From Candidatus Angelobacter sp. (GTDB taxonomy: Bacteria > Acidobacteriota > Terriglobia > Terriglobales > Acidobacteriaceae), in contig DASZEU010000238.1 in assembly GCA_035940535.1 (NCBI GenBank), forward strand, positions 1 to 51,264: a DNA stretch of 51,264 nt, in the 5' to 3' direction. Below, in pieces: positions 11,754-47,649 of this stretch. The first letter of the stretch is position 1; each line of letters opens with the position of its first letter. The notes beneath the pieces were generated by a model, which was not told the DNA's origin, ran no database searches, and saw only the letters and a list, made by a program, of their open reading frames with translations. A program made the position numbers and the translations under genes.

Positions 11754-12863
11754 TCACTGCAATGAAGCGCTGGCAACTTTTGACGCCAACTCCAGGCGGT
11801 CAATAACCCCTTCCAGGTTGCCATCGCGCACGATGACAACGAATGGCAAACGCCGTCGTATGATCTCGGCATTCAGCAGAGGCCTGTGCTCTGATCCGAA
11901 TTGCTCCAAAATCTCGCCTTGCTGCCTGATTCCCAACTCGCGCAGGATTGGGGGAGTAAGGACCTGTATCACATCAGATTCCTTTTGAGCGGCGAAAACT
12001 GACAGCACGGCAGGTCGGTAGTTGCTTATCATAAGACTGATATTGTTCCCATAGCCGATCGACGCTTGCCGGCATTGCAGATATGCCAGCTCAAGTTTTG
12101 GCTCGGCTTTGGTAAGAGCGCGGTGAATTTCGGCAGGCGACGCCACGGTTAGCACTCGGCCACCTGGATCAAGCAATACGAACTGACGGATCTCTGTAAA
12201 ATCCGACGCTAACGCTGCCACAAGATGCAGCCTGGTATTCCACCACGGAGTTGGGCCAAGACGTATGGCGACGAATTCAGCCGAGGCCAGATCCTGAAGT
12301 TGCTGCTGGATATTTGGAAGGAACGATGGTCCGAGGTCCGGTGCAGACTTGATTTGCTCAATGGCAGCCATGGTCGCAACCGGCTTTGTCGATTGATGCT
12401 GAATCACTGAGATCAAGACCTGCTTGGCGAGGTCGTCAGGAGTTTTAAAGAATGCCACCCAGCGTTCTGCCTTCAAGCGGTCCCGCAAGTCATGAATGCG
12501 TTTACCATCGTTTTGCTGCTGCTCGGCATCGCGCTGAGAATCCGGCCAAGGAAAGTCCTCAGCTAACATGAAGATCAGACGTGGCCTTTTCGCGTGTCCT
12601 GCAGCTAGATACTCGAGTTCGGTAATGGATTTTCCTTCCGGGTTGTCTTCAGCAGGAACGTAACCAAACTTCCAGGCTAATATGCCGACGTAAATATCGC
12701 ATGCTGCTGCGTCCGCTTCGCAAGCAGCCCTGGGCCGATCGTCGCGTGCAGGATATTTCTCCATGGCATCGACGTTGTAGTTACATTTGCGCAACGAATC
12801 AGCCACTGCACGCCGATAATCCTTGAGGTCTTCGTAGGTGGACGAGATATAGATAGTGGTCAT
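11754..12863 (-). CDS. DUF4062 (NDT/TIR-like) N-terminal domain + CBS-pair-like C-terminal region
   Basis: N-terminus IYISSTYEDLKDYRRAV...CDIYVGILAWKFGYV...SITELEYLAA..PRLIFM is the DUF4062 pattern. The C-terminal half holds two CBS-like stretches (IRQFVLLDPGGRVLTVASPAEIHRAL; LPFVVIVRDGNLEGVIDRLELASKV). Confidence 0.7.
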   Translation of the reverse strand: MTTIYISSTYEDLKDYRRAVADSLRKCNYNVDAMEKYPARDDRPRAACEADAAACDIYVGILAWKFGYVPAEDNPEGKSITELEYLAAGHAKRPRLIFMLAEDFPWPDSQRDAEQQQNDGKRIHDLRDRLKAERWVAFFKTPDDLAKQVLISVIQHQSTKPVATMAAIEQIKSAPDLGPSFLPNIQQQLQDLASAEFVAIRLGPTPWWNTRLHLVAALASDFTEIRQFVLLDPGGRVLTVASPAEIHRALTKAEPKLELAYLQCRQASIGYGNNISLMISNYRPAVLSVFAAQKESDVIQVLTPPILRELGIRQQGEILEQFGSEHRPLLNAEIIRRRLPFVVIVRDGNLEGVIDRLELASKVASASLQ

Positions 12864-30994: not shown

Positions 30995-31107
30995 GTTGTC
31001 CTCCTCCGTTCCGCTTCGATTGACAGCCTAGCCGGTACATTCGGGCGTTACCTCAGTTTTTCGGCGAATAGCGGCGGAATACCGGCGAACGACGGCTCTT
31101 AAGCGGA

Positions 31108-31151
31108 TTTTTGCCGCCAAGGGCGCGAGGTGGCGCAAAGGAAACCAAAAG
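31108..31151. repeat. CCTTyGyGG-family repeat (reverse orientation)
   Basis: The reverse complement reads cctttgcgc cacctcgcg cccttggcg gcaaaa (9-bp units). Confidence 0.5.
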
Positions 31152-31342
31152 CTCACCGGAAGAGAGCATATTATTGGGCTTCAAGTCGAATCAAAACTAA
31201 AGCCCAAGATGCGCAAAGTAGAAGTATTTTTGCGCAAGAATATAGATTTTGTACGATCTGTGAAGGCGCGTCGTATCATCTCTTAGGTTAACCTTTGCGT
31301 GCGGCGGTCTAACACTTCAGGAAGAGGAAACAAAAGCTGCCA

Positions 31343-32485
31343 ATGGATGACACTCCCAAAATTGAACTGGTCCGTGAATCCGACGATCAAGAGATCAAAG
31401 TCGCAGGACCAACCGCACGAGCTCGCATCGACCATTGGCTCTCAACCCTGGTCGAACGCGGTGGCAGTGATCTGTTGCTGGTTCCTGGGGTTCCGGCCTG
31501 TATTCGCTTGGAAGGCGAGGTGCTCAATATTGAAGCTCGTCCGCTGAACGGCCCGGAGATTGAGGCGGCGGTTTCTGTCGCGCTCTCACCTCATGCGTTG
31601 CGAGTCTTTAAGGAAGCTGGCATTGCCGACTCTTCCTATCGCATCTCTGGCGTTGGACGCTTCCGAATCAACTTGCACCGCGAACGCGGCCGCACAGCCG
31701 CCTCGATTCGTGCTTTGCCCACCAAAATACCTTCCCTCCACGAGCTTCATCTGCCGCCGAGCGTGGAATCTCTCGCCCACCTTCCCCGCGGACTGGTGCT
31801 GATCGGCGGCCCGGCAGGCTCTGGCAAATCCACTACCATGGCGGCTTTGATTCATGAGATCAACCGCCGCGAGGCACGCCACATTCTCACGATTGAAGAC
31901 CCAATCGAGTATGAACACACTCATCTGCGCAGCGTGGTCGAACAGGTCGAGATCGGCATCGATGCACCCGACTTCCCTACCGCGCTACGTGCGGCGCTCC
32001 GACAGGCCCCCGACGTTCTAGTAGTAGGCGAGATGCGCGACCCGGAAACCATGCGCATCGCGGTGGCCGCCGCCGAGACCGGACATCTGGTCTTTTCCAC
32101 CCTGCACACCACCGATGTAGCTTCGACCATCTCGCGCATCTCCGATTCTTTCCCGGCGGAACGGCAAAACACCATCCGCCAGGAGTTAGCGATGGCGCTA
32201 GCGGCAGTTCATACCCAGATCTTGCTACCCAGCAAGCTCGGCGGACGTGTCCCCGCAGCCGAATTACTGCTCGTCGGATACGGCACCCGCCAGCACATAA
32301 GGCGCAACGCACTCCAGCATCTCCATCAGGAAATCACCATGACCAAGAAAAGCGGCTCCTTCAGTCTGGAAGAATCGCTAACCGATTTGCTGGTCCAGGG
32401 ACATATCGGACGCGAAGATGCGTTACTCTATGCTGTGCATCCTGATGATCTGGATACGCTGATGAAGGCTAAAGGACGAAAGTAA
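31343..32485 (+). CDS. pilT: Type IV pilus retraction ATPase PilT/PilU family
   Basis: Walker A GPAGSGKST. Asp/His boxes (ILTIEDPIEY, VVGEMRD, GHLVFSTLHT). Confidence 0.93.
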   Translation: MDDTPKIELVRESDDQEIKVAGPTARARIDHWLSTLVERGGSDLLLVPGVPACIRLEGEVLNIEARPLNGPEIEAAVSVALSPHALRVFKEAGIADSSYRISGVGRFRINLHRERGRTAASIRALPTKIPSLHELHLPPSVESLAHLPRGLVLIGGPAGSGKSTTMAALIHEINRREARHILTIEDPIEYEHTHLRSVVEQVEIGIDAPDFPTALRAALRQAPDVLVVGEMRDPETMRIAVAAAETGHLVFSTLHTTDVASTISRISDSFPAERQNTIRQELAMALAAVHTQILLPSKLGGRVPAAELLLVGYGTRQHIRRNALQHLHQEITMTKKSGSFSLEESLTDLLVQGHIGREDALLYAVHPDDLDTLMKAKGRK

Positions 32486-32571
32486 GGTTCTTCACAATTA
32501 TTCCGAGAAACCGTTCAGCCGAGTGATGAGATGAGGCTGCGTGTCTGAGTAGTAGGCCATTTAGCGTGAAG

Positions 32572-32634
32572 GCGTGTATCAGGGCATGATTTTAGTCGTG
32601 CCGAAAAAGCCTTTTATGTATAGGGCTTTAGCCC
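32572..32634 (+). repeat. ~63-bp dispersed repeat, copy 1
   Basis: gcgtgtatcagggcatgattttagtcgtgccgaaaaagccttttatgtatagggctttagccc. Roughly 85-90% identical by eye to 42392-42454, same orientation. Internal aaagcc/ggcttt hairpin. Confidence 0.8.
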
Positions 32635-32787
32635 TTGCGCAGTTGCGCTGAAACTGTTGCAACAATTTCAACATGACCACTGCCCAGGCTTGTGATAATT
32701 CCCTTTTGATAGTTCCTTTTCGGTATTCTATAGATCATCAGAACCAGTTAACTACGCGCCCAAATATGGCCAAGGAACGAAATAAGG

Positions 32788-33789
32788 ATGCCGCCCAAAA
32801 AGGTGACTATAGCAACAGTTGACATTGAGGTGAAGGAAGGCGACGCACTTGCAGAACAAGCTGACGTGCTTGTTCTGAAGCACGCTCAGGCGCTGTATGG
32901 CGTGGATGCCCTGGTGGTCGATGCTCTTCGAACTGCAGGTAGAAATATTCAACTGCCTGAGCCATGGGGAGCTTGTCTTGAAGATTCATTGCCAGCTATT
33001 AAAGCCTCACGCCTCCTCTTTATCGGAGTTCCACCACTGCTTGAGTTTGGTTATCGAGAAATTCGCACTTTCGCCCTGCATGCAATTGCTACTTTGGCTG
33101 AAAAACTTCCCAAGACAAGACATGTCCTCCTAACAGTTCACGGACCCGGCTATGGCTTGGATGAGATCGAGGCTTTTGAGGCAGAGCTAGCGGGGTTAGT
33201 TGACGCTGTCCGCGCCGGTAATTATCCCGAGGCGCTTCAGAGAATTACGATCATTGAATTTGATTCCCGTCGCGCAAAACGCCTTGCGAAAACACTTGTC
33301 GGCTTGTTCCCTGAACATACCATAAGCAAGACCGGTGCTTCGGACCAGCCAGCGAGCGCCAAGACTATTGAAAGGTTGCGTGCCGCAGGGAACGCCTCTG
33401 ATGAGAAAGCACGCGTTTTTGTGGCCATGCCTTTCAAGGATGAGATGTATGACACCTACTACTACGGCATCGAGAAGCCGGTTAAGGCTGCGGGTCTTTT
33501 ATGCGAACGTGCGGATCTTACGACTTTCACGGGTGACGTCTTGGAGTGGGTACGATCGCGAATTCGCTCCGCCCATCTCGTTGTTGCGGATCTTACTGAT
33601 GCCAACCCGAACGTATATCTTGAGGTCGGTTACGCATGGGGTGTCGGCATTCCGACGGTCCTCGTCGTGAAGAGTACAGATCATCTCAAGTTCGACGTTC
33701 GCGGACAGAGATGCCTCGTATACAAGAAGATTAAAGAACTTGAGGACCTGCTCACGGTGGAATTGAAGCGCCTGCACATCGATACCTGA
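32788..33789 (+). CDS. Macro-like N-terminal domain + nucleoside-2-deoxyribosyltransferase/TIR-like C-terminal domain
   Basis: N-terminal macro-fold pattern (EGDALAEQADVLVLKHAQ; RLLFIGVPP; VLLTVHGPGYGLDEIEA; ITIIEFD). C-terminus VFVAMPF...HLVVADLTDANPNVYLEVGYAWGVGIPTVLV. Assigned by eye only. Confidence 0.7.
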   Translation: MPPKKVTIATVDIEVKEGDALAEQADVLVLKHAQALYGVDALVVDALRTAGRNIQLPEPWGACLEDSLPAIKASRLLFIGVPPLLEFGYREIRTFALHAIATLAEKLPKTRHVLLTVHGPGYGLDEIEAFEAELAGLVDAVRAGNYPEALQRITIIEFDSRRAKRLAKTLVGLFPEHTISKTGASDQPASAKTIERLRAAGNASDEKARVFVAMPFKDEMYDTYYYGIEKPVKAAGLLCERADLTTFTGDVLEWVRSRIRSAHLVVADLTDANPNVYLEVGYAWGVGIPTVLVVKSTDHLKFDVRGQRCLVYKKIKELEDLLTVELKRLHIDT

Positions 33790-33909
33790 GGCCGCCTCTT
33801 GCAATATGCACGCGCCCACTCAAGCTCAGGTACGTTCTTGTGCTCAATGGCACTTTCAATTCGTTTCAGTTCCTTAAAGCGCGTCACGCTGTCCTCTCTC
33901 CACTGTAGG

Positions 33910-35145
33910 CTACTGCGCCCGCGTTGAAGCCTTCGTCATTTTCTTCAGCGTAACTGGAATCGAGGTTCGCGCCACAAGAGTGCCGCTAATCTCGGTGCCA
34001 TCCTGGTTGAGTGTTCCTTTGAATAGTGGTTGAGTCATCTCAGCGCCCCACGCAGCAAACTCGATCTGCTGACCATCTTGCTTGATAGAGCTGTAAGTGA
34101 TCGTGGCGCCTTTCTGTCCGGACTTTGGTTCGATAATCTCCATCTTGGCCAGCACCGTATGATCGGGCAGGTTTTTTAAGTGAAGAACATATTGAAGTGT
34201 TGCTCCGTTCGGCGCCTCGACGGTTGCTTGCCAGTCCCCTTCCAGTTGCTTGGAGACCGCCGGGCCGCGATGGGACATCTCTGGCCGGGCTTTGACTTCG
34301 CGTCTCTTCTCCGGTGGCAGCAGTGTGGCAACCCGGGTTTTCATGTTGTAGCGATCGCCAGGGATGAGTTCCAGGTAGGAGACCCCATCGTGAGTCTTCC
34401 CATCGGTCACCAGCACCACGCTCCTGCCGGTAACTTCAAATTCGTCGCCGGTAACCACGATGCCGGCGCTGGCATCCAGCCCGATGCCTAGTAAACCAGG
34501 GTGGTCAGCAACCACCGCCGTCAATTGCTCTTCGGCCGACCTTTGCACCACGTGCGCGTTCACAGCAACATCCTTAAGAAATCCAAATCCACGGTCGTGG
34601 CCGGGAACGACCAGGTGGCGGTCACCGTCGGTGGTTGCTCCATGCAACATCAAGGTCCCCATGACCGCGGCGCCTGCCGAATCTCCGCCAATCACGCCAC
34701 CGCGCTGGAGCAAAGCCTCGAATTCGCGTTGTGCGCGTGTTCCCAGGTAAGGCTCCACTAATTGCCCTGCCTTGCCTCCGGAAAACCAGATTCCCGTGGC
34801 CCGCCGTAACGGCGCAACGAACTCCTCCGAGTCGGCTATCTTACGGTCTCGGGTGTGTACCACCACAAGATCTTGCACGCCAAAAACCGGCTTGAGCTGC
34901 TCCACCAAACGCTTGAAAGCTTCTGACGTAATCTGTTCTTCGCCCGCCGCTGTAGGAATTAAAACAATGTGAGCATGGGTGCCCCCGGCCAGCGCCGCAA
35001 AACGTTGCGCAACTTCCGGGACCGGCATCGCTGCGCCACCTTCGAGCACCAGAGTTCCTTTCGATGGACCATTCGTCCATGCGAGCGGCCCAATGACAAA
35101 GAGCGAAATAAATGACGCGACCAAGAGCTTTGGCATCTTTCCCAT
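33910..35145 (-). CDS. Secreted peptidase S51 (cyanophycinase-like) with extra C-terminal domain
   Basis: Signal peptide. VLIPTAAGEE...WFSGGKAGQL...IGGDSAGAAVMG (Ser nucleophile context). About 130-aa unassigned C-terminal domain. Confidence 0.8.
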   Translation of the reverse strand: MGKMPKLLVASFISLFVIGPLAWTNGPSKGTLVLEGGAAMPVPEVAQRFAALAGGTHAHIVLIPTAAGEEQITSEAFKRLVEQLKPVFGVQDLVVVHTRDRKIADSEEFVAPLRRATGIWFSGGKAGQLVEPYLGTRAQREFEALLQRGGVIGGDSAGAAVMGTLMLHGATTDGDRHLVVPGHDRGFGFLKDVAVNAHVVQRSAEEQLTAVVADHPGLLGIGLDASAGIVVTGDEFEVTGRSVVLVTDGKTHDGVSYLELIPGDRYNMKTRVATLLPPEKRREVKARPEMSHRGPAVSKQLEGDWQATVEAPNGATLQYVLHLKNLPDHTVLAKMEIIEPKSGQKGATITYSSIKQDGQQIEFAAWGAEMTQPLFKGTLNQDGTEISGTLVARTSIPVTLKKMTKASTRAQ

Positions 35146-35438
35146 TGGGTCTCCCCTTTGCTTCAGATACGTCTTAAAACTAAATCGGTTGTGCGAATGC
35201 GCTGTCGTCGATACTTAGACACCTGAGGCCACGGGTTTGTTCCGATGTCGTGTCTCGAAAATCACATGGTTATACTGCTAACTATAGGCACACTCAATCG
35301 CCGCGATTTCGAGACCTGATGCGGATAGTCGAGCGTGTTTCCAAAATAGGGTTAGATCAAAACAGGTGGAAGCCCAGGACTTCAGTCCGGGGAGTGGACT
35401 ATTTAGAGTCCGCGAAAATCGAGGCTCGCATCGGGGCA

Positions 35439-36044
35439 CTATTGCAGATGATTCAAAAACGTACACCTGCTCTTCTCATATTCCTCGATCTGTTTCAAAC
35501 ACTTCAAGGTCGCGCCGATCTCATCCGTTCCTTCCAGCAGGCAGCTCCGCTGGAAAGGATCCATCTGAAAATTGCACAAGAAACCATCCTGGGCCGACAC
35601 TGTGCATTGCTCGAGATCGATCTTCAAACTAAAGGACCCAGATGTAGCCCGCGCCATGAATTCGGCGATGTCAGCAGGCGAGAGGACCACTGGCACCAGC
35701 CCATTCTTGACGCAATTGGTCGAAAAGATATCGGCAAAGGAAGCGGCGATCACAACGCGGAATCCATAATCGCGCAACGCCCATACCGCATGCTCGCGTG
35801 AGGAGCCGCAGCCAAAATTTTTCCCGGCGAGCAGAATTGTTGCTCTCCGAGAAGCAGGCTGGTTGAGTGAGAACTCCGGGTTTGGAACTCCCTTGCTATC
35901 GAAGCGCCAATCAAAAAAGAGAAAGTCTCCATAGCCGGTGCGCTCAATGCGTTTCAGGAACTGCTTGGGAATGATCTGGTCGGTATCCACATTCTCCCGC
36001 TGTAGTGGAGCTACGATGCCGGTATGACTTTTGAACGGTTGCAT
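35439..36044 (-). CDS. leuD: 3-isopropylmalate dehydratase small subunit
   Basis: DTDQIIPKQFL...GKNFGCGSSREHA pattern. Confidence 0.95.
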   Translation of the reverse strand: MQPFKSHTGIVAPLQRENVDTDQIIPKQFLKRIERTGYGDFLFFDWRFDSKGVPNPEFSLNQPASRRATILLAGKNFGCGSSREHAVWALRDYGFRVVIAASFADIFSTNCVKNGLVPVVLSPADIAEFMARATSGSFSLKIDLEQCTVSAQDGFLCNFQMDPFQRSCLLEGTDEIGATLKCLKQIEEYEKSRCTFLNHLQ

Positions 36045-42207: not shown

Positions 42208-42391
42208 GAGAACTCCTTATTGTAAGAATCTTAGATTGATAAGCGGAGAATGAGCAAAAATTACTATTGCTGTAAGAGCAGCGCGAGAAGAGACATTCGC
42301 ATTCGCGTGGAGAGCAACATCAGTTTTTATTATACCGTTTGCTTCCCATCATAGAGGAGCAAAATTTTGGTAGCGGGTCATTTTGCCTGAA

Positions 42392-42454
42392 GACGTGTGT
42401 CAGGGCATGACTTGAGTCGTGCCGAAAGAGCCTTTAAATACAGGGCTTTAGCCT
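42392..42454 (+). repeat. ~63-bp dispersed repeat, copy 2
   Basis: acgtgtgtcagggcatgacttgagtcgtgccgaaagagcctttaaatacagggctttagcct. Matches 32572-32634. Confidence 0.8.
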
Positions 42455-45635: not shown

Positions 45636-46496
45636 GGGCGGGACAACCTCCATTTGCTGGACGGCTTGCTGATGTTGCGCCAGATGCAAATTAGACGCAT
45701 GGCCGATCAATTGGTAAACGCGACTTGCTTAACAATTCTAACAGCGCGCTCACCAAAACTTCGCAAACATTCTGCGTTTAGCCCAATGCCATTCAGCACT
45801 GGTTCGGCCAAACACATTTTGCGAGGGATCAGTATTTTCACGAGCCGAAGCCAGTGTTGGGGAATGCAAAAATCAACGCTAAGCCCCAGAGGAGGCGACA
45901 TATTTTTTTCCTCCAACAACTCAGCGCAGCTAGAAGCCTGGATAGCAAACCAGCAAACAGTCGCCAAACCCCGGCGGGGTGACATCATGCTCATGATTAC
46001 AAAATACTAATATCCAGGATATGAACAACATAAAATAATATTATTAAGATAAATTGAAGTTTACATAAGCTTTATTCAGTTCAGATATTCGAACGTCTGG
46101 TATCGGAAGGGTTATAGAGAATTTCAGAAATGCAGGTTATAACTGGTAAAAAGCTTTCTTTATGACTTAGGTGTTGGAGTCGATAAGTTGCTGCCTTTGT
46201 GCCCTTAATCGGGCAGCTACACTGGTTCATTCAATCATTACCGAAGTGAATAGATCGGAAAACGACTCTTTAGGGCTCCTTAAATGTGAGATCAATCCCT
46301 AATCGAAATAGATGCCACAAAGTAATGTTGCCGGTATTGTGTAAGTGGATTTCACTATCGAGTCTTACAGCTTATCTATAAAGCTACAAATCGCGTGACG
46401 CTTATCTACCAGAGAGTAGAAGCTGATAGTTATTCACCAGCCTCATGAGGTTGCGATTTTAGTCTACCGCTGTTAGCATGAGCGCGAAGGAGCCTT

Positions 46497-46739
46497 ATGG
46501 ATACACAGCAAATAATTGCAGCACTTAGGGATGAAAGAGACCGTCTTGAGCAAGCTATCTCTGCTCTGGAAGGTGGAGGAGGACGTGGCCGTCGTGGCCG
46601 TCGTCCAGGACCTGTGCCAGGAGGTCCTGGTCGCGGACGTGGAAGACGACGACGTCGTTTGAGCGCCGCTGCCAAACAGCGCATTTCTGAAATGATGAAA
46701 AAGCGTTGGGCGGAGAGAAAGAAAGCGGCGAGAGGTTGA
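46497..46739 (+). CDS. Small basic protein: coiled-coil N-terminus, Arg/Gly-rich core, basic C-terminal helix
   Basis: SD aaggag 6 nt before the ATG. 80 aa: MDTQQIIAALRDERDRLEQAISALEGGGGRGRRGRRPGP...RRLSAAAKQRISEMMKKRWAERKKAA. Followed by a strong terminator. Confidence 0.6.
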   Translation: MDTQQIIAALRDERDRLEQAISALEGGGGRGRRGRRPGPVPGGPGRGRGRRRRRLSAAAKQRISEMMKKRWAERKKAARG

Positions 46740-46771
46740 TCAAGTCTAGGAACCCAGAAGGTTGTGAAAAG

Positions 46772-46800
46772 GGCCGTGCTGATAGCACGGTCTTTTTTTG
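46772..46800 (+). terminator. Rho-independent terminator
   Basis: ggccgtgct-gat-agcacggtc stem followed by ttttttt (46793-46799). Confidence 0.85.
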
Positions 46801-46848
46801 CTCTGTAGTATCGTATGTAGTTCCTGAATTCTTCCTTTTGGAAGCCGT

Positions 46849-47649
46849 ATGGTTCGAAATTATCTCCTTGCACTGATGATTGGTTTTTTCTGCCTGCCCC
46901 TCATGGCCCAAGACAACTATGAGATCCAGGTCTATGGGTCGGACACAGTCGAGCCGCATTCCACCATGGTTGAATTCCACACAAACTTCACTGTGAACGG
47001 CTCCAAATCGGTAATCAATGGCGTCCAGCCTACCAACCATGCCTTGCACGAAACCATTGAGATCACCCAGGGATTCAAGGATTGGTTCGAGACCGGTTTT
47101 TATATTTTCACCAGTGCTCGTTCCGGCGGCGGTTGGGATTGGGTTGGCGACCATATTCGGCCACGGTTCCGCATACCGGAAAAATGGCACTGGCCGGTTG
47201 GGGTTAGCCTGTCGAATGAAATCGGATATCAGCGCCGCAGTTTTGCGCAGGATTCCTGGACCTGGGAAATGCGTCCGATTGTGGACAAGAAACTCGGTCG
47301 CTGGTACCTGTCTTTTAATCCCACGATTGATAAGTCATTGCATGGTGACAACGTGGCCAGGGGTTTTGAATTCTCACCTAATTTCAAGTTCTCTTACGAC
47401 TTCACCAAAGTGGTCAGCGGCGGGCTTGAATACTACGGCGCCATTGGACCAATCGGCAGCTTTGACCCCATCGGAGACCAGCAGCAGCAATTTTTCCCCT
47501 CCATAGACCTCAACGTCTCACCTGATTGGGAACTGAACTTCGGAATCGGTGTAGGCGTAACGCATTCCACCGACCACCTGATCATCAAGGCCATCGTTGG
47601 CCGCCGATTCACATGGGGCCACAACGCCAAGAAAAAAGCTGGATATTAA
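46849..47649 (+). CDS. Outer-membrane beta-barrel protein (MetA-pathway/transporter-like)
   Basis: Signal peptide ending PLMAQ. Alternating beta-strand pattern with aromatic girdles. C-terminal ...GRRFTW. Confidence 0.65.
   Translation: MVRNYLLALMIGFFCLPLMAQDNYEIQVYGSDTVEPHSTMVEFHTNFTVNGSKSVINGVQPTNHALHETIEITQGFKDWFETGFYIFTSARSGGGWDWVGDHIRPRFRIPEKWHWPVGVSLSNEIGYQRRSFAQDSWTWEMRPIVDKKLGRWYLSFNPTIDKSLHGDNVARGFEFSPNFKFSYDFTKVVSGGLEYYGAIGPIGSFDPIGDQQQQFFPSIDLNVSPDWELNFGIGVGVTHSTDHLIIKAIVGRRFTWGHNAKKKAGY

Follow-up and report, generated by a model that had tools for sequence, protein, structure and literature searches.

The gene and its setting

The subject of this analysis is a gene on the forward strand, at positions 32788-33789, of a 51,264-nucleotide stretch of DNA from Candidatus Angelobacter sp. 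(contig DASZEU010000238.1), the whole of which is referred to here as the window. The original prediction, made from the sequence alone, proposed that the gene fuses a divergent macro-like domain to a nucleoside 2-deoxyribosyltransferase (NDT)/TIR-like domain. The list of open reading frames (ORFs) gives the frame as proposed, with an ATG start and 333 amino acids (aa), and all of the quoted motifs are present in its translation. In the N-terminal half these are EGDALAEQADVLVLKHAQ (aa 17-34), RLLFIGVPP (aa 75-83), VLLTVHGPGYGLDEIEA (aa 113-129) and ITIIEFD (aa 153-159), and in the C-terminal half VFVAMPF (aa 210-216) and VVADLTDANPNVYLEVGYAWGVGIPTVLV (aa 265-293). The features of the gene are the following, with the evidence for each in parentheses.

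32788..33789, + strand: whole ORF with ATG start, 333 aa and stop, comprising the macro-like domain, linker and NDT/TIR-like domain (ORF list, homologues, AlphaFold2 model)
32809..33333, + strand: macro-like (macro/LAP-N fold) domain, aa ~8-182 (Foldseek against the PDB and a viral library; hhalign against YmdB; PDB profile match to LAP N-domain)
32842..32907, + strand: degenerate macro loop-1 region, D19 to D40, GDALAEQADVLVLKHAQALYGVD (hhalign against YmdB; conservation)
33139..33171, + strand: invariant loop H118-G-P-G-Y-G-L-D-E-I-E128, at the position of macro phosphate-binding loop 2 (alignment columns; YmdB alignment)
33334..33402, + strand: Ser/Ala-rich linker and short helix, aa 183-205 (dip in pLDDT; gapped alignment columns; EAD7 insertions in relatives P0237 and P0250)
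33403..33777, + strand: NDT/TIR-like (DrHyd-type Rossmannoid) domain of N-glycosidase type, aa ~206-330 (Pfam, PADLOC, Foldseek, hhalign)
33418..33420, + strand: codon of Phe211 in VFVAMPF, strand b1 (invariant F211; equivalence to the NDT/DNPH1 Tyr is a motif-level inference)
33622..33624, + strand: codon of Glu279 in YLEVGYA, predicted catalytic nucleophile/acid (invariant; aligned to the Glu of MilB, NDT and DNPH1)

More than 3000 homologues of the 333-aa protein were recovered from 5.8 billion proteins searched. The best 120 are all full length (~325-345 aa, 82-100% query coverage, 53-93% identity), all bear the name 'hypothetical protein', and a precomputed Pfam domain is attached to none of them. 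In an alignment of 41 sequences, 47 columns are invariant and both halves of the protein are strongly conserved. Homologues this numerous, the best of them full length, and conservation spread over both halves show that the ORF is a real, conserved gene rather than a reading frame open by chance.

The neighbouring genes are those originally described: a PilT-like T2SSE ATPase upstream (31343-32485, +) and a peptidase S51 downstream (33910-35145, -), which is convergent with the gene. Beyond the peptidase lie leuD, leuC and leuB, and the wider window has the character of core chromosome, with dnaK, dnaJ, glmS, ThiF/MoeB and GGT genes. Scans for promoters and terminators around the gene stayed at chance level, and Rfam has no match in 31000-35500. 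The upstream ATPase shows weak matches to nSTAND_NTPase5/AAA_16 in Pfam and to mad8/mad3/HerA in PADLOC. A functional link to it was considered and rejected, as the ATPase does not recur beside the family elsewhere; it is treated as an unrelated ATPase of the twitching-motility type.

Two folds in one polypeptide

The AlphaFold2 model of the whole protein, built on the family alignment, reaches a pLDDT of 90 and a pTM of 0.88. Its sole dip in confidence falls in the linker (aa 181-190, pLDDT down to 62), a segment that varies in length and sequence among relatives. The strands (b) and helices (a) of the N-terminal domain follow the order b1 10-17, b2 27-32, a1 38-49, b 62-66, b 75-80, a 89-106, b 112-116, a 126-142, b 152-157 and a 160-173. 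Single-protein and profile searches of the PDB produced only marginal matches (MilB, E 0.15-0.3; leucine aminopeptidase, LAP, E 0.02-0.04), and fold comparison was therefore needed. Foldseek found 72 PDB matches at E <= 1e-3. More than 40 of these place the N-terminal half among macro domains or LAP N-domains (E 1e-6 to 4e-4, TM on target 0.5-0.68), including LAP N-domains, SauMacro, the macro domains of PARP14/15/9, macroH2A1.1, YmdB, MacroD1 and Af1521. In an independent library of viral structures, the same half matches macro domains of alphaviruses, coronaviruses and giant viruses.

A profile of 56 diverse N-terminal domains was compared with Escherichia coli YmdB by hhalign. The alignment is collinear over 160 columns (pairwise E 5.6e-4, probability 30%) and reproduces the element-by-element pairing with macro domains that had been proposed from motifs:

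this protein GDALAEQADVLVLKHAQALY---GVD, paired with the Asn-bearing, GGGG-containing loop-1 region of YmdB
this protein RLLFIGVPP, paired with YmdB KAVVHTVGP
this protein LT-VHGPGYGLDE, paired with YmdB FPAISTGVYGYPR
this protein ITIIEFD, paired with YmdB VYFVCYD

The alignment is weak as a homology statistic, yet it agrees with the structure-based expectation and with the earlier pairing. The macro-fold call for the N-terminal half thus holds on the Foldseek matches in both structure collections and on the comparison with YmdB.

The original prediction also held that the canonical Asn and Gly-rich ligand contacts are replaced, which is correct in part. The two NAAN Asn residues of YmdB, N22 and N25, become L30 and A33, and the glycine loop is shorter by three residues, with GGGG reduced to G38. 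The loop-1 motif N-x(6)-G-G-[VLI]-D, which bears the ribose-contacting Asn, is therefore absent apart from its Asp, kept as D40. Other contacts are retained. The adenine-contact Asp of 'GD' persists (G18-D19 aligned to G10-D11 of YmdB), and the loop-2 motif G-[VIA]-[YF]-G is present, with G121-Y122-G123 aligned to V-Y-G in ISTGVYGYP; in the family alignments all five residues are invariant or at least 90% conserved. The ligand-contact roles of the GD Asp and of the loop-2 residues are known from established macro-domain structures. In and around loop 2, the columns T116, H118, G119, G121, Y122, G123, L124, D125, E126 and E128 are invariant or nearly so, and a set specific to the family (K31, Y89, R93, T116, H118, D125 and E126) shows the same degree of constancy.

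The nearest described relative of the N-terminal domain by sequence is the N-domain of LAP, which has the macro fold. The profile of the domain matches Pseudomonas aeruginosa LAP in the PDB at E 0.023 over 54 residues, and one relative (P0205) scores 22.8 bits against Peptidase_M17_N (PF02789), for which the cut-off is 23.4. In Pfam, the window protein itself matches neither PF02789 nor an M17 catalytic domain. The Pfam Macro family (PF01661) likewise has no match at E <= 10 in the window protein and none in the 20 relatives scanned. 'Macro-like' is therefore the correct term at the level of fold (SCOP 'macro domain-like'), and membership of the ADP-ribose-binding macro family is not established.

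The C-terminal half was assigned by several routes. Pfam Nuc_deoxyrib_tr (PF05014) matches aa 257-300 below threshold (22 bits against a gathering score of 28.8, E 1.9e-4). The sole PADLOC match is PDLC00733, 'Effector TIR' of the CBASS type (E 6e-11, aa 257-320), and it covers ~64 residues in the C-terminal part of a 388-position model. NCBIfam yielded nothing meaningful for the 333-aa protein, and no Pfam model of the TIR families (TIR, TIR_2, ThsB_TIR, CAP12-PCTIR_TIR) matches the C-terminal domain. By structure, the PDB match is the CMP N-glycosidase BcmB of Clostridium botulinum (4jen; E 1.4e-4, TM on target 0.75). The viral library adds CMP hydrolase, NDT and CAP12/Pycsar-TIR proteins, with a CAP12/Pycsar TIR protein at E 4.9e-5.

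The catalytic residue can be placed through a chain of alignments. HMMER aligns aa 258-308 to MilB, with E279 on the Glu of 'THVEIGWA'. A second link runs through a Bacillus mycoides plasmid protein that is annotated as nucleoside 2-deoxyribosyltransferase and passes the PF05014 threshold at 33.9 bits. The C-terminal domain aligns to this bridge with an hhalign probability of 98.6% (E 9e-16, 34% identity), and VFVAM-F and ADxT...VYxExGYAxGxG are kept between the two. The bridge in turn matches NDT and DNPH1 structures in the PDB, in which the same Glu lies in 'FEVGCA' (Trypanosoma brucei NDT) and 'YELGRA' (DNPH1). No relationship was detected by hhalign between the N-terminal domain of the window family and the N-terminus of the Bacillus NDT-like protein. 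All 41 aligned sequences have the Glu of E279, which sits in an E-x-G-x-A motif after strand 4. The NDT/TIR-like call for this half thus holds on the BcmB fold match and the hhalign link to a Pfam-passing NDT protein, and the Glu of YLEVGYA stands at the nucleophile position as foreseen. Given the MilB alignment and the B. mycoides bridge, transitive links establish that the domain is homologous to the NDT/DrHyd superfamily and where its predicted nucleophile Glu lies.

A second position bears on substrate choice. In NDT and DNPH1, a Tyr on strand 1 is hydrogen-bonded to the catalytic Glu and enforces 2'-deoxy specificity, and TIR domains with NADase activity usually have Phe or Ala there (PMC11204291). 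The window family has an invariant Phe on strand 1 (F211 in the 41-sequence alignment), and the Tyr of the 2'-deoxy-specific enzymes is absent there; the equivalence was mapped by motif position and not by alignment. If that mapping is right, F211 speaks for a ribo substrate, for instance NAD+ or an NMP.

Architectures, distribution and neighbourhoods of the family

An exhaustive HMMER search with the N-terminal domain alone gave 802 clusters at 50% identity, and architectures were read in the best 150 of the 802 cluster representatives. The N- and C-terminal domains are nearly always found together, and most of the apparent exceptions are cut off by the end of a contig. Additional domains are fused to the pair in a minority of relatives. 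TIR_2 occurs N-terminally in 15 of the 150 and DUF4062 in one (P0258). EAD7 is fused in P0204 and P0219, and weakly in P0226, and it lies inside the linker in P0237 and P0250. Single relatives carry EAD1 (P0242), bacterial Death-like domain 1 (bDLD1; P0185), CHAT (P0199), Hsp70 (P0197), HTH (P0233) or a C-terminal astacin-like peptidase (P0154). A vWA-like region in P0182 was assigned by eye and has no Pfam match.

The C-terminal partner can also be exchanged. In P0134 a ThsB-like TIR takes the place of the NDT-like domain (Pfam TIR_2 3e-23; PADLOC ThsB 1e-36, PDC-S66 5e-60), and in P0176, P0266 and P0223 the replacement is an unrelated helical region. The invariant residues of the macro-like domain, including loop 2, persist through all of these swaps, and because they do, they serve a function of their own domain rather than an interface with the NDT-like domain. 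The macro-like domain behaves as an autonomous module, and the pattern is that of a sensor with interchangeable effectors.

The nature of the partners is informative. EADs and Death-like domains are adaptors that bring effectors to NTPase-centred conflict and immune systems (PMC7159879, PMC8195603), and among the effector or signalling domains that target nucleotides and NAD in conflict systems, TIR and DrHyd are standard (PMC7159879, PMC8195603, PMC9503650). The reading of the protein as a putative NAD-linked immune effector, which is still inferential, gains strength from the TIR, EAD, Death-like and CHAT fusions.

The family is widespread and sparse. A motif-seeded scan of GTDB with one genome per species confirmed at least 203 loci in 185,579 species, a count that is a lower bound, at 42-71% identity to the window protein. 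These loci span more than 12 phyla and include Acidobacteriota, Planctomycetota, Verrucomicrobiota, Binatia, Gamma-, Beta- and Alphaproteobacteria, Bacteroidota, Chloroflexota, Cyanobacteria, Nitrospirota, Chlorobiota, Actinomycetota, Gemmatimonadota and Zixibacteria. Since identity is high across phyla while occurrence is sparse, the distribution indicates horizontal spread. Clustering of all ORFs around 80 GTDB loci revealed no conserved neighbour. The recurrent clusters are limited to ABC ATPases, chemoreceptors, an MNT-like nucleotidyltransferase and occasional paralogous NDT-like genes, and three genome contexts inspected singly were all different, one being an integrase/AbiEii/PIN island. 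Conservation as a core gene in a housekeeping neighbourhood, which would have spoken against an immune role, is thus not what is seen; the distribution is patchy and the neighbourhoods vary.

In Acidobacteriaceae with homologues of 61-71% identity, the gene lies at sites other than that in the window. A metagenome scan with the peptidase S51 neighbour, aimed at an empty site, returned one orthologue of 84% identity (L088); it says nothing on insertion because its surroundings share no genes with the window. Two long apparent fusions (L031, 703 aa; L078, 669 aa) were rejected as artefacts of longest-ORF calling in GC-rich DNA. In two loci (L056 234-947 and L065 4515-5498), a paralogous NDT-like gene with a different partner region lies directly upstream of the macro-NDT gene, which suggests tandem diversification of the effector type.

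Plasmid and phage collections contain relatives of the C-terminal domain alone, carried on Bacillus megaplasmids and within the lysogeny modules of Streptococcus and Staphylococcus prophages. One such protein, in Streptococcus phage Javan508 (L109, 3890-4669), has 259 aa and no Pfam match and is encoded between the integrase and Cro/CI; similar proteins are found in 26 other Streptococcus and Staphylococcus phage records. The site between integrase and Cro/CI is the usual place of prophage-borne defence or exclusion genes.

Several other features of the window were recorded. The gene at 11754-12863 (-), which the original prediction named as a second NDT/TIR-like protein of the window, matches Pfam DUF4062 at E 2.7e-20; its 369-aa product has DUF4062 at aa 4-88, followed by an auxiliary region of ~280 aa. 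DUF4062 was reported in 2026 to be the TIR-like NADase of the single-gene antiphage system Swarozyc (bioRxiv 10.64898/2026.05.01.722283), and the gene is a candidate Swarozyc homologue. It stands alone between ccmB/ccmC, an RHH/TraY-like gene and fpg, and no PADLOC 2023 model matches its product.

The dispersed repeat noted upstream of the macro-NDT gene is confirmed. Its first copy (32549-32633, 85 bp) lies inside the 302-bp spacer upstream of the gene, and the second (42370-42453) is flanked by a ThiF/MoeB-rhodanese gene and a JAB gene; both are on the + strand and share 83.5% identity (E 5e-20). A hairpin, GGCATGA(T/C)-TT(T/G)A-GTCGTGCC, is conserved in both copies. One stem position is T in one copy and C in the other, opposite the same G, so that pairing is kept through a one-sided change (T-G versus C-G). 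The first copy has no Rfam match, and the fold z-score of the element is only -1.8. The element is probably a REP/MITE-like intergenic repeat. In addition, 46001-47000 has a GC content of 0.448 against a window norm of ~0.54. Two ORFs (46555-47190, -; 46849-47649, +) overlap at this stretch and have no Pfam match, and the stretch may be non-coding or the result of a small insertion of foreign DNA.

A proposed gated N-glycosidase and its alternatives

The favoured explanation starts from what is described above, namely the two folds, the conserved residues, a macro-like domain that behaves as a module, fusion partners of immune type and a distribution that is patchy and solitary; the substrate, ligand, activation mechanism and defence phenotype are what we infer from them. 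On this model, one gene would suffice for a conflict or immune effector of the 'sensor domain plus TIR/NDT-type N-glycosidase' kind. The C-terminal NDT/TIR-like domain would be the enzyme, with Glu279 cleaving the N-glycosidic bond of a ribonucleotide, most probably NAD+ or alternatively an adenine or cytosine ribonucleotide. Depletion of this essential metabolite would abort infection. The N-terminal degenerate macro domain would be a regulatory module that gates the glycosidase. Its pocket appears to be of the adenine-nucleotide type (D19, D40, G121-Y122-G123), rebuilt around K31, Y89, R93, T116, H118, D125 and E126, and its ligand may be a nucleotide that resembles ADP-ribose or stems from infection, or some other trigger. 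Once bound, the ligand would activate the glycosidase, probably by altering the oligomeric state, as in other TIR/NDT-type effectors. The model is favoured because a constant module with a conserved pocket pairs with swappable enzymatic outputs and sometimes with adaptors. The sensor domains SAVED, STING, SLOG and the ThsA macro domain behave in this way, as a constant module with varied outputs. Also counted in favour of the model are the CBASS-type 'TIR' effector as the nearest model of the defence library, the invariant F211, the integrase/AbiEii/PIN context and the scattered defence-like neighbours in other loci, the precedents of Swarozyc and of the NDT-like effector of retron Ec86, and the relatives of the C-terminal domain in prophage lysogeny modules and on megaplasmids. 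We put the odds that the protein is a stand-alone effector of the abortive-infection type, in which a macro-like sensor gates a ribo-specific N-glycosidase that is probably an NADase, at about even.

The proposed arrangement resembles several described systems without coinciding with any of them. Swarozyc consists of a single gene in which a DUF4062 TIR-like NADase and an auxiliary domain are joined and are activated by the phage portal (bioRxiv 10.64898/2026.05.01.722283). The likenesses are a solitary gene for one polypeptide, a TIR/NDT-superfamily domain with a catalytic Glu beside a non-catalytic auxiliary domain required for activation, abortive infection through NAD+ depletion as the proposed output, and a family member with N-terminal DUF4062. 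However, the window protein has no DUF4062 match in Pfam, hhalign finds no relationship between its family and the DUF4062 protein of the window, the auxiliary domain is N-terminal and the enzyme C-terminal, and the auxiliary domain is macro-like.

In type II Thoeris, the TIR protein ThsB is paired with ThsA, a TM-macro protein (PMC11204291). A macro fold is again coupled to TIR-type NAD chemistry, and relatives in the window family fuse the macro-like domain to a ThsB-like TIR, N-terminally in P0141 and C-terminally in P0134 (PADLOC ThsB, E 1e-36 to 5e-15). In contrast with Thoeris, no thsA/thsB pair, ThsB partner or TM effector lies beside the gene and none recurs in the 80 loci; the macro-like domain has neither a Pfam Macro match nor the loop-1 Asn and GGG, and the output is an NDT-like glycosidase instead of a membrane effector.

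The retron Ec86/Eco1 also uses an NDT-like toxic effector, whose activity depends on oligomerisation (bioRxiv 10.1101/2023.08.16.553469) and is held off until triggered, and the window protein shares the NDT-like domain as a putative antiphage toxic output. It differs in its accessory domain, in matching no PADLOC retron effector and in its surroundings, where no reverse transcriptase (RT) gene is found in the window beside the gene and no Rfam non-coding RNA between 31000 and 35500. The CBASS TIR effectors, with the logic of TIR-SAVED and TIR-STING, provide the best match of the C-terminal domain in the defence library and likewise fuse a ligand sensor to an N-glycosidase. However, the N-terminal part of PDLC00733 is unmatched beyond the ~64 residues, and a CD-NTase gene is neither near the window gene nor recurrent in the 80 loci.

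Among enzymes, MilB/BcmB, DNPH1 (Rcl) and NDT (PF05014, DrHyd) share the Rossmannoid fold and the motif D-x-[ST]...N-x-x-x-x-E-x-G-x-A-x-G with its nucleophile Glu, and ribo-specific MilB may share Phe instead of Tyr on strand 1. The window protein is set apart from them by its sub-gathering Pfam score, the macro-like fusion, the lack of a biosynthetic cluster and the immune-type fusion partners. Canonical macro domains (Af1521, YmdB, MacroD1) and the LAP N-domain share fold, strand order, GD, the loop-1 Asp and the loop-2 G-Y-G. They differ by the PF01661 match that is missing here, the replaced NAAN Asn, the shorter GGG loop and the new invariant set, and LAP by its M17 peptidase domain.

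A number of observations weigh against the favoured explanation. The window holds no adjacent defence gene, and the region is core chromosome (dnaK/dnaJ, glmS, leuBCD, pilT). The gene occupies the same site in a relative whose protein is 93% identical. Collections of 72,556 plasmids and 50,697 phage records yielded no homologue of full length. No model of PADLOC (2023) or Pfam spans the whole protein, and the PADLOC gap counts here. Some of the 134 immediate neighbours of family members match PADLOC models for ThsB, caspase, SAVED-HNH, SoFic, PDC-S03 and PDC-S09, each in at most two loci, but the scan had no control set and supports no claim of enrichment. A cyclase model is not among the 25 most frequent of the 64 PADLOC families matched by these neighbours, and a DRT-type RT model is matched by 2 of the 134 and does not recur. 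For the N-terminal domain, binding of ADP-ribose by the predicted pocket cannot be assumed, because macro loop 1 is degenerate. Its nearest kin by sequence, the LAP N-domain, is an assembly and DNA-binding domain and no ligand sensor. The acidic cap D125-E126-x-E128 beside the would-be phosphate loop also argues against a canonical diphosphate site.

Three alternatives were weighed. The protein may be inert alone, acting as an effector subunit at an unlinked STAND, vWA-MoxR or TIR-signalling system, or as a trans-acting ThsA-like receptor-effector that answers a second messenger from an unlinked TIR or cyclase. Docking on NTPase cores encoded elsewhere is implied by the EAD1, EAD7 and bDLD1 fusions (PMC7159879), a macro domain is the receptor of type II Thoeris ThsA (PMC11204291), and the window has another TIR-like gene in the DUF4062 gene at 11754-12863. 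However, most members, including the window protein, carry no adaptor domain, the 80 loci revealed no linked partner, and unlinked signalling partners are unusual in bacterial defence systems. Recruitment of this kind, which we consider improbable, overlaps with the stand-alone effector and differs from it only in the origin of the trigger.

A second alternative gives the macro-like domain the role that the DarG macro antitoxin has on DarT, downstream of the chemistry and not as an upstream sensor. The NDT/TIR-like domain would make a product or signal of ADP-ribose type from NAD+, and the macro-like domain would hydrolyse, sequester or proof-read it, so that the pair limits itself. Macro domains are mostly ADP-ribose-processing enzymes (PMC9503650), the invariant polar residues H118, D125, E126, D40 and K31 are enzyme-like, the pTM suggests a fixed interdomain arrangement, and the TIR-fused variants bear a second NAD-consuming domain. 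Nevertheless, the hallmarks of macro hydrolases (NAAN Asn, GGG loop) are lost, a Pfam Macro match is missing at E <= 10, and the macro-like domain also accompanies C-terminal domains not of NAD type (P0176, P0223), which would leave it no product to act on. A self-limiting pair is unlikely on this balance.

The remaining alternative, also given a low probability, is a nucleotide or nucleoside N-glycosidase or transferase of housekeeping or secondary metabolism (MilB/BcmB/DNPH1/NDT-like salvage or modified-base metabolism) with the LAP-N/macro-like domain as an oligomerisation scaffold only: CMP and hydroxymethyl-CMP hydrolases are the best PDB sequence matches of the C-terminal domain, the N-terminal domain has its best sequence matches, in PDB and Pfam alike, in LAP N-domains, which mediate hexamer assembly, and the locus is core here and stable in a close relative, but the family is patchy (~0.1% of species as a lower bound) and highly identical across many phyla, no biosynthetic or salvage genes recur nearby, the TIR, DUF4062, EAD1, EAD7, Death-like and CHAT fusions lack a metabolic rationale, a ThsB-like TIR takes the place of the NDT-like domain in P0134, and conservation is strong in the would-be macro pocket and not on surfaces only. 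The fusion partners in relatives point to a single-gene bacterial immune effector and not a housekeeping enzyme.

A more specific version of the stand-alone effector is a one-chain analogue of Thoeris, in which a degenerate macro receptor for an ADP-ribose-derived or infection-generated adenine nucleotide would switch on a fused NDT-type NADase, in a widespread and unrecognised antiphage system. This version is possible but doubtful. If it is true, the TIR-macro-NDT relatives would unite the generator of the signal, its receptor and the executioner in a single chain, and the macro-like module would be a new class of portable sensor that works with NDT-like, ThsB-like TIR and helical effectors.

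The fusion of a sensor domain to a TIR/NDT-type glycosidase is well known, whereas the sensor fold, the NDT-like subfamily and their combination appear to be undescribed. In agreement with the original prediction, which recognised no described system in the architecture, no paper was found on a two-domain protein of macro-like and NDT/DrHyd type, in coverage that did not include Burroughs et al. 2015 (NAR) and Burroughs & Aravind 2020 (J Bacteriol). Proteins that join a sensor to an NADase are central to innate immunity from bacteria to humans, as in Thoeris, TIR-SAVED, TIR-STING, SARM1 and Swarozyc/TEP1. What the family would add to them is a rebuilt macro domain as a new sensor fold, and an executioner of NDT type that is also new. 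It is common in soil phyla with little-explored defence repertoires, such as Acidobacteriota, Planctomycetota and Chloroflexota, and if the ligand of its macro-like module is identified, a new immune signal or a new infection-derived danger molecule could come to light.

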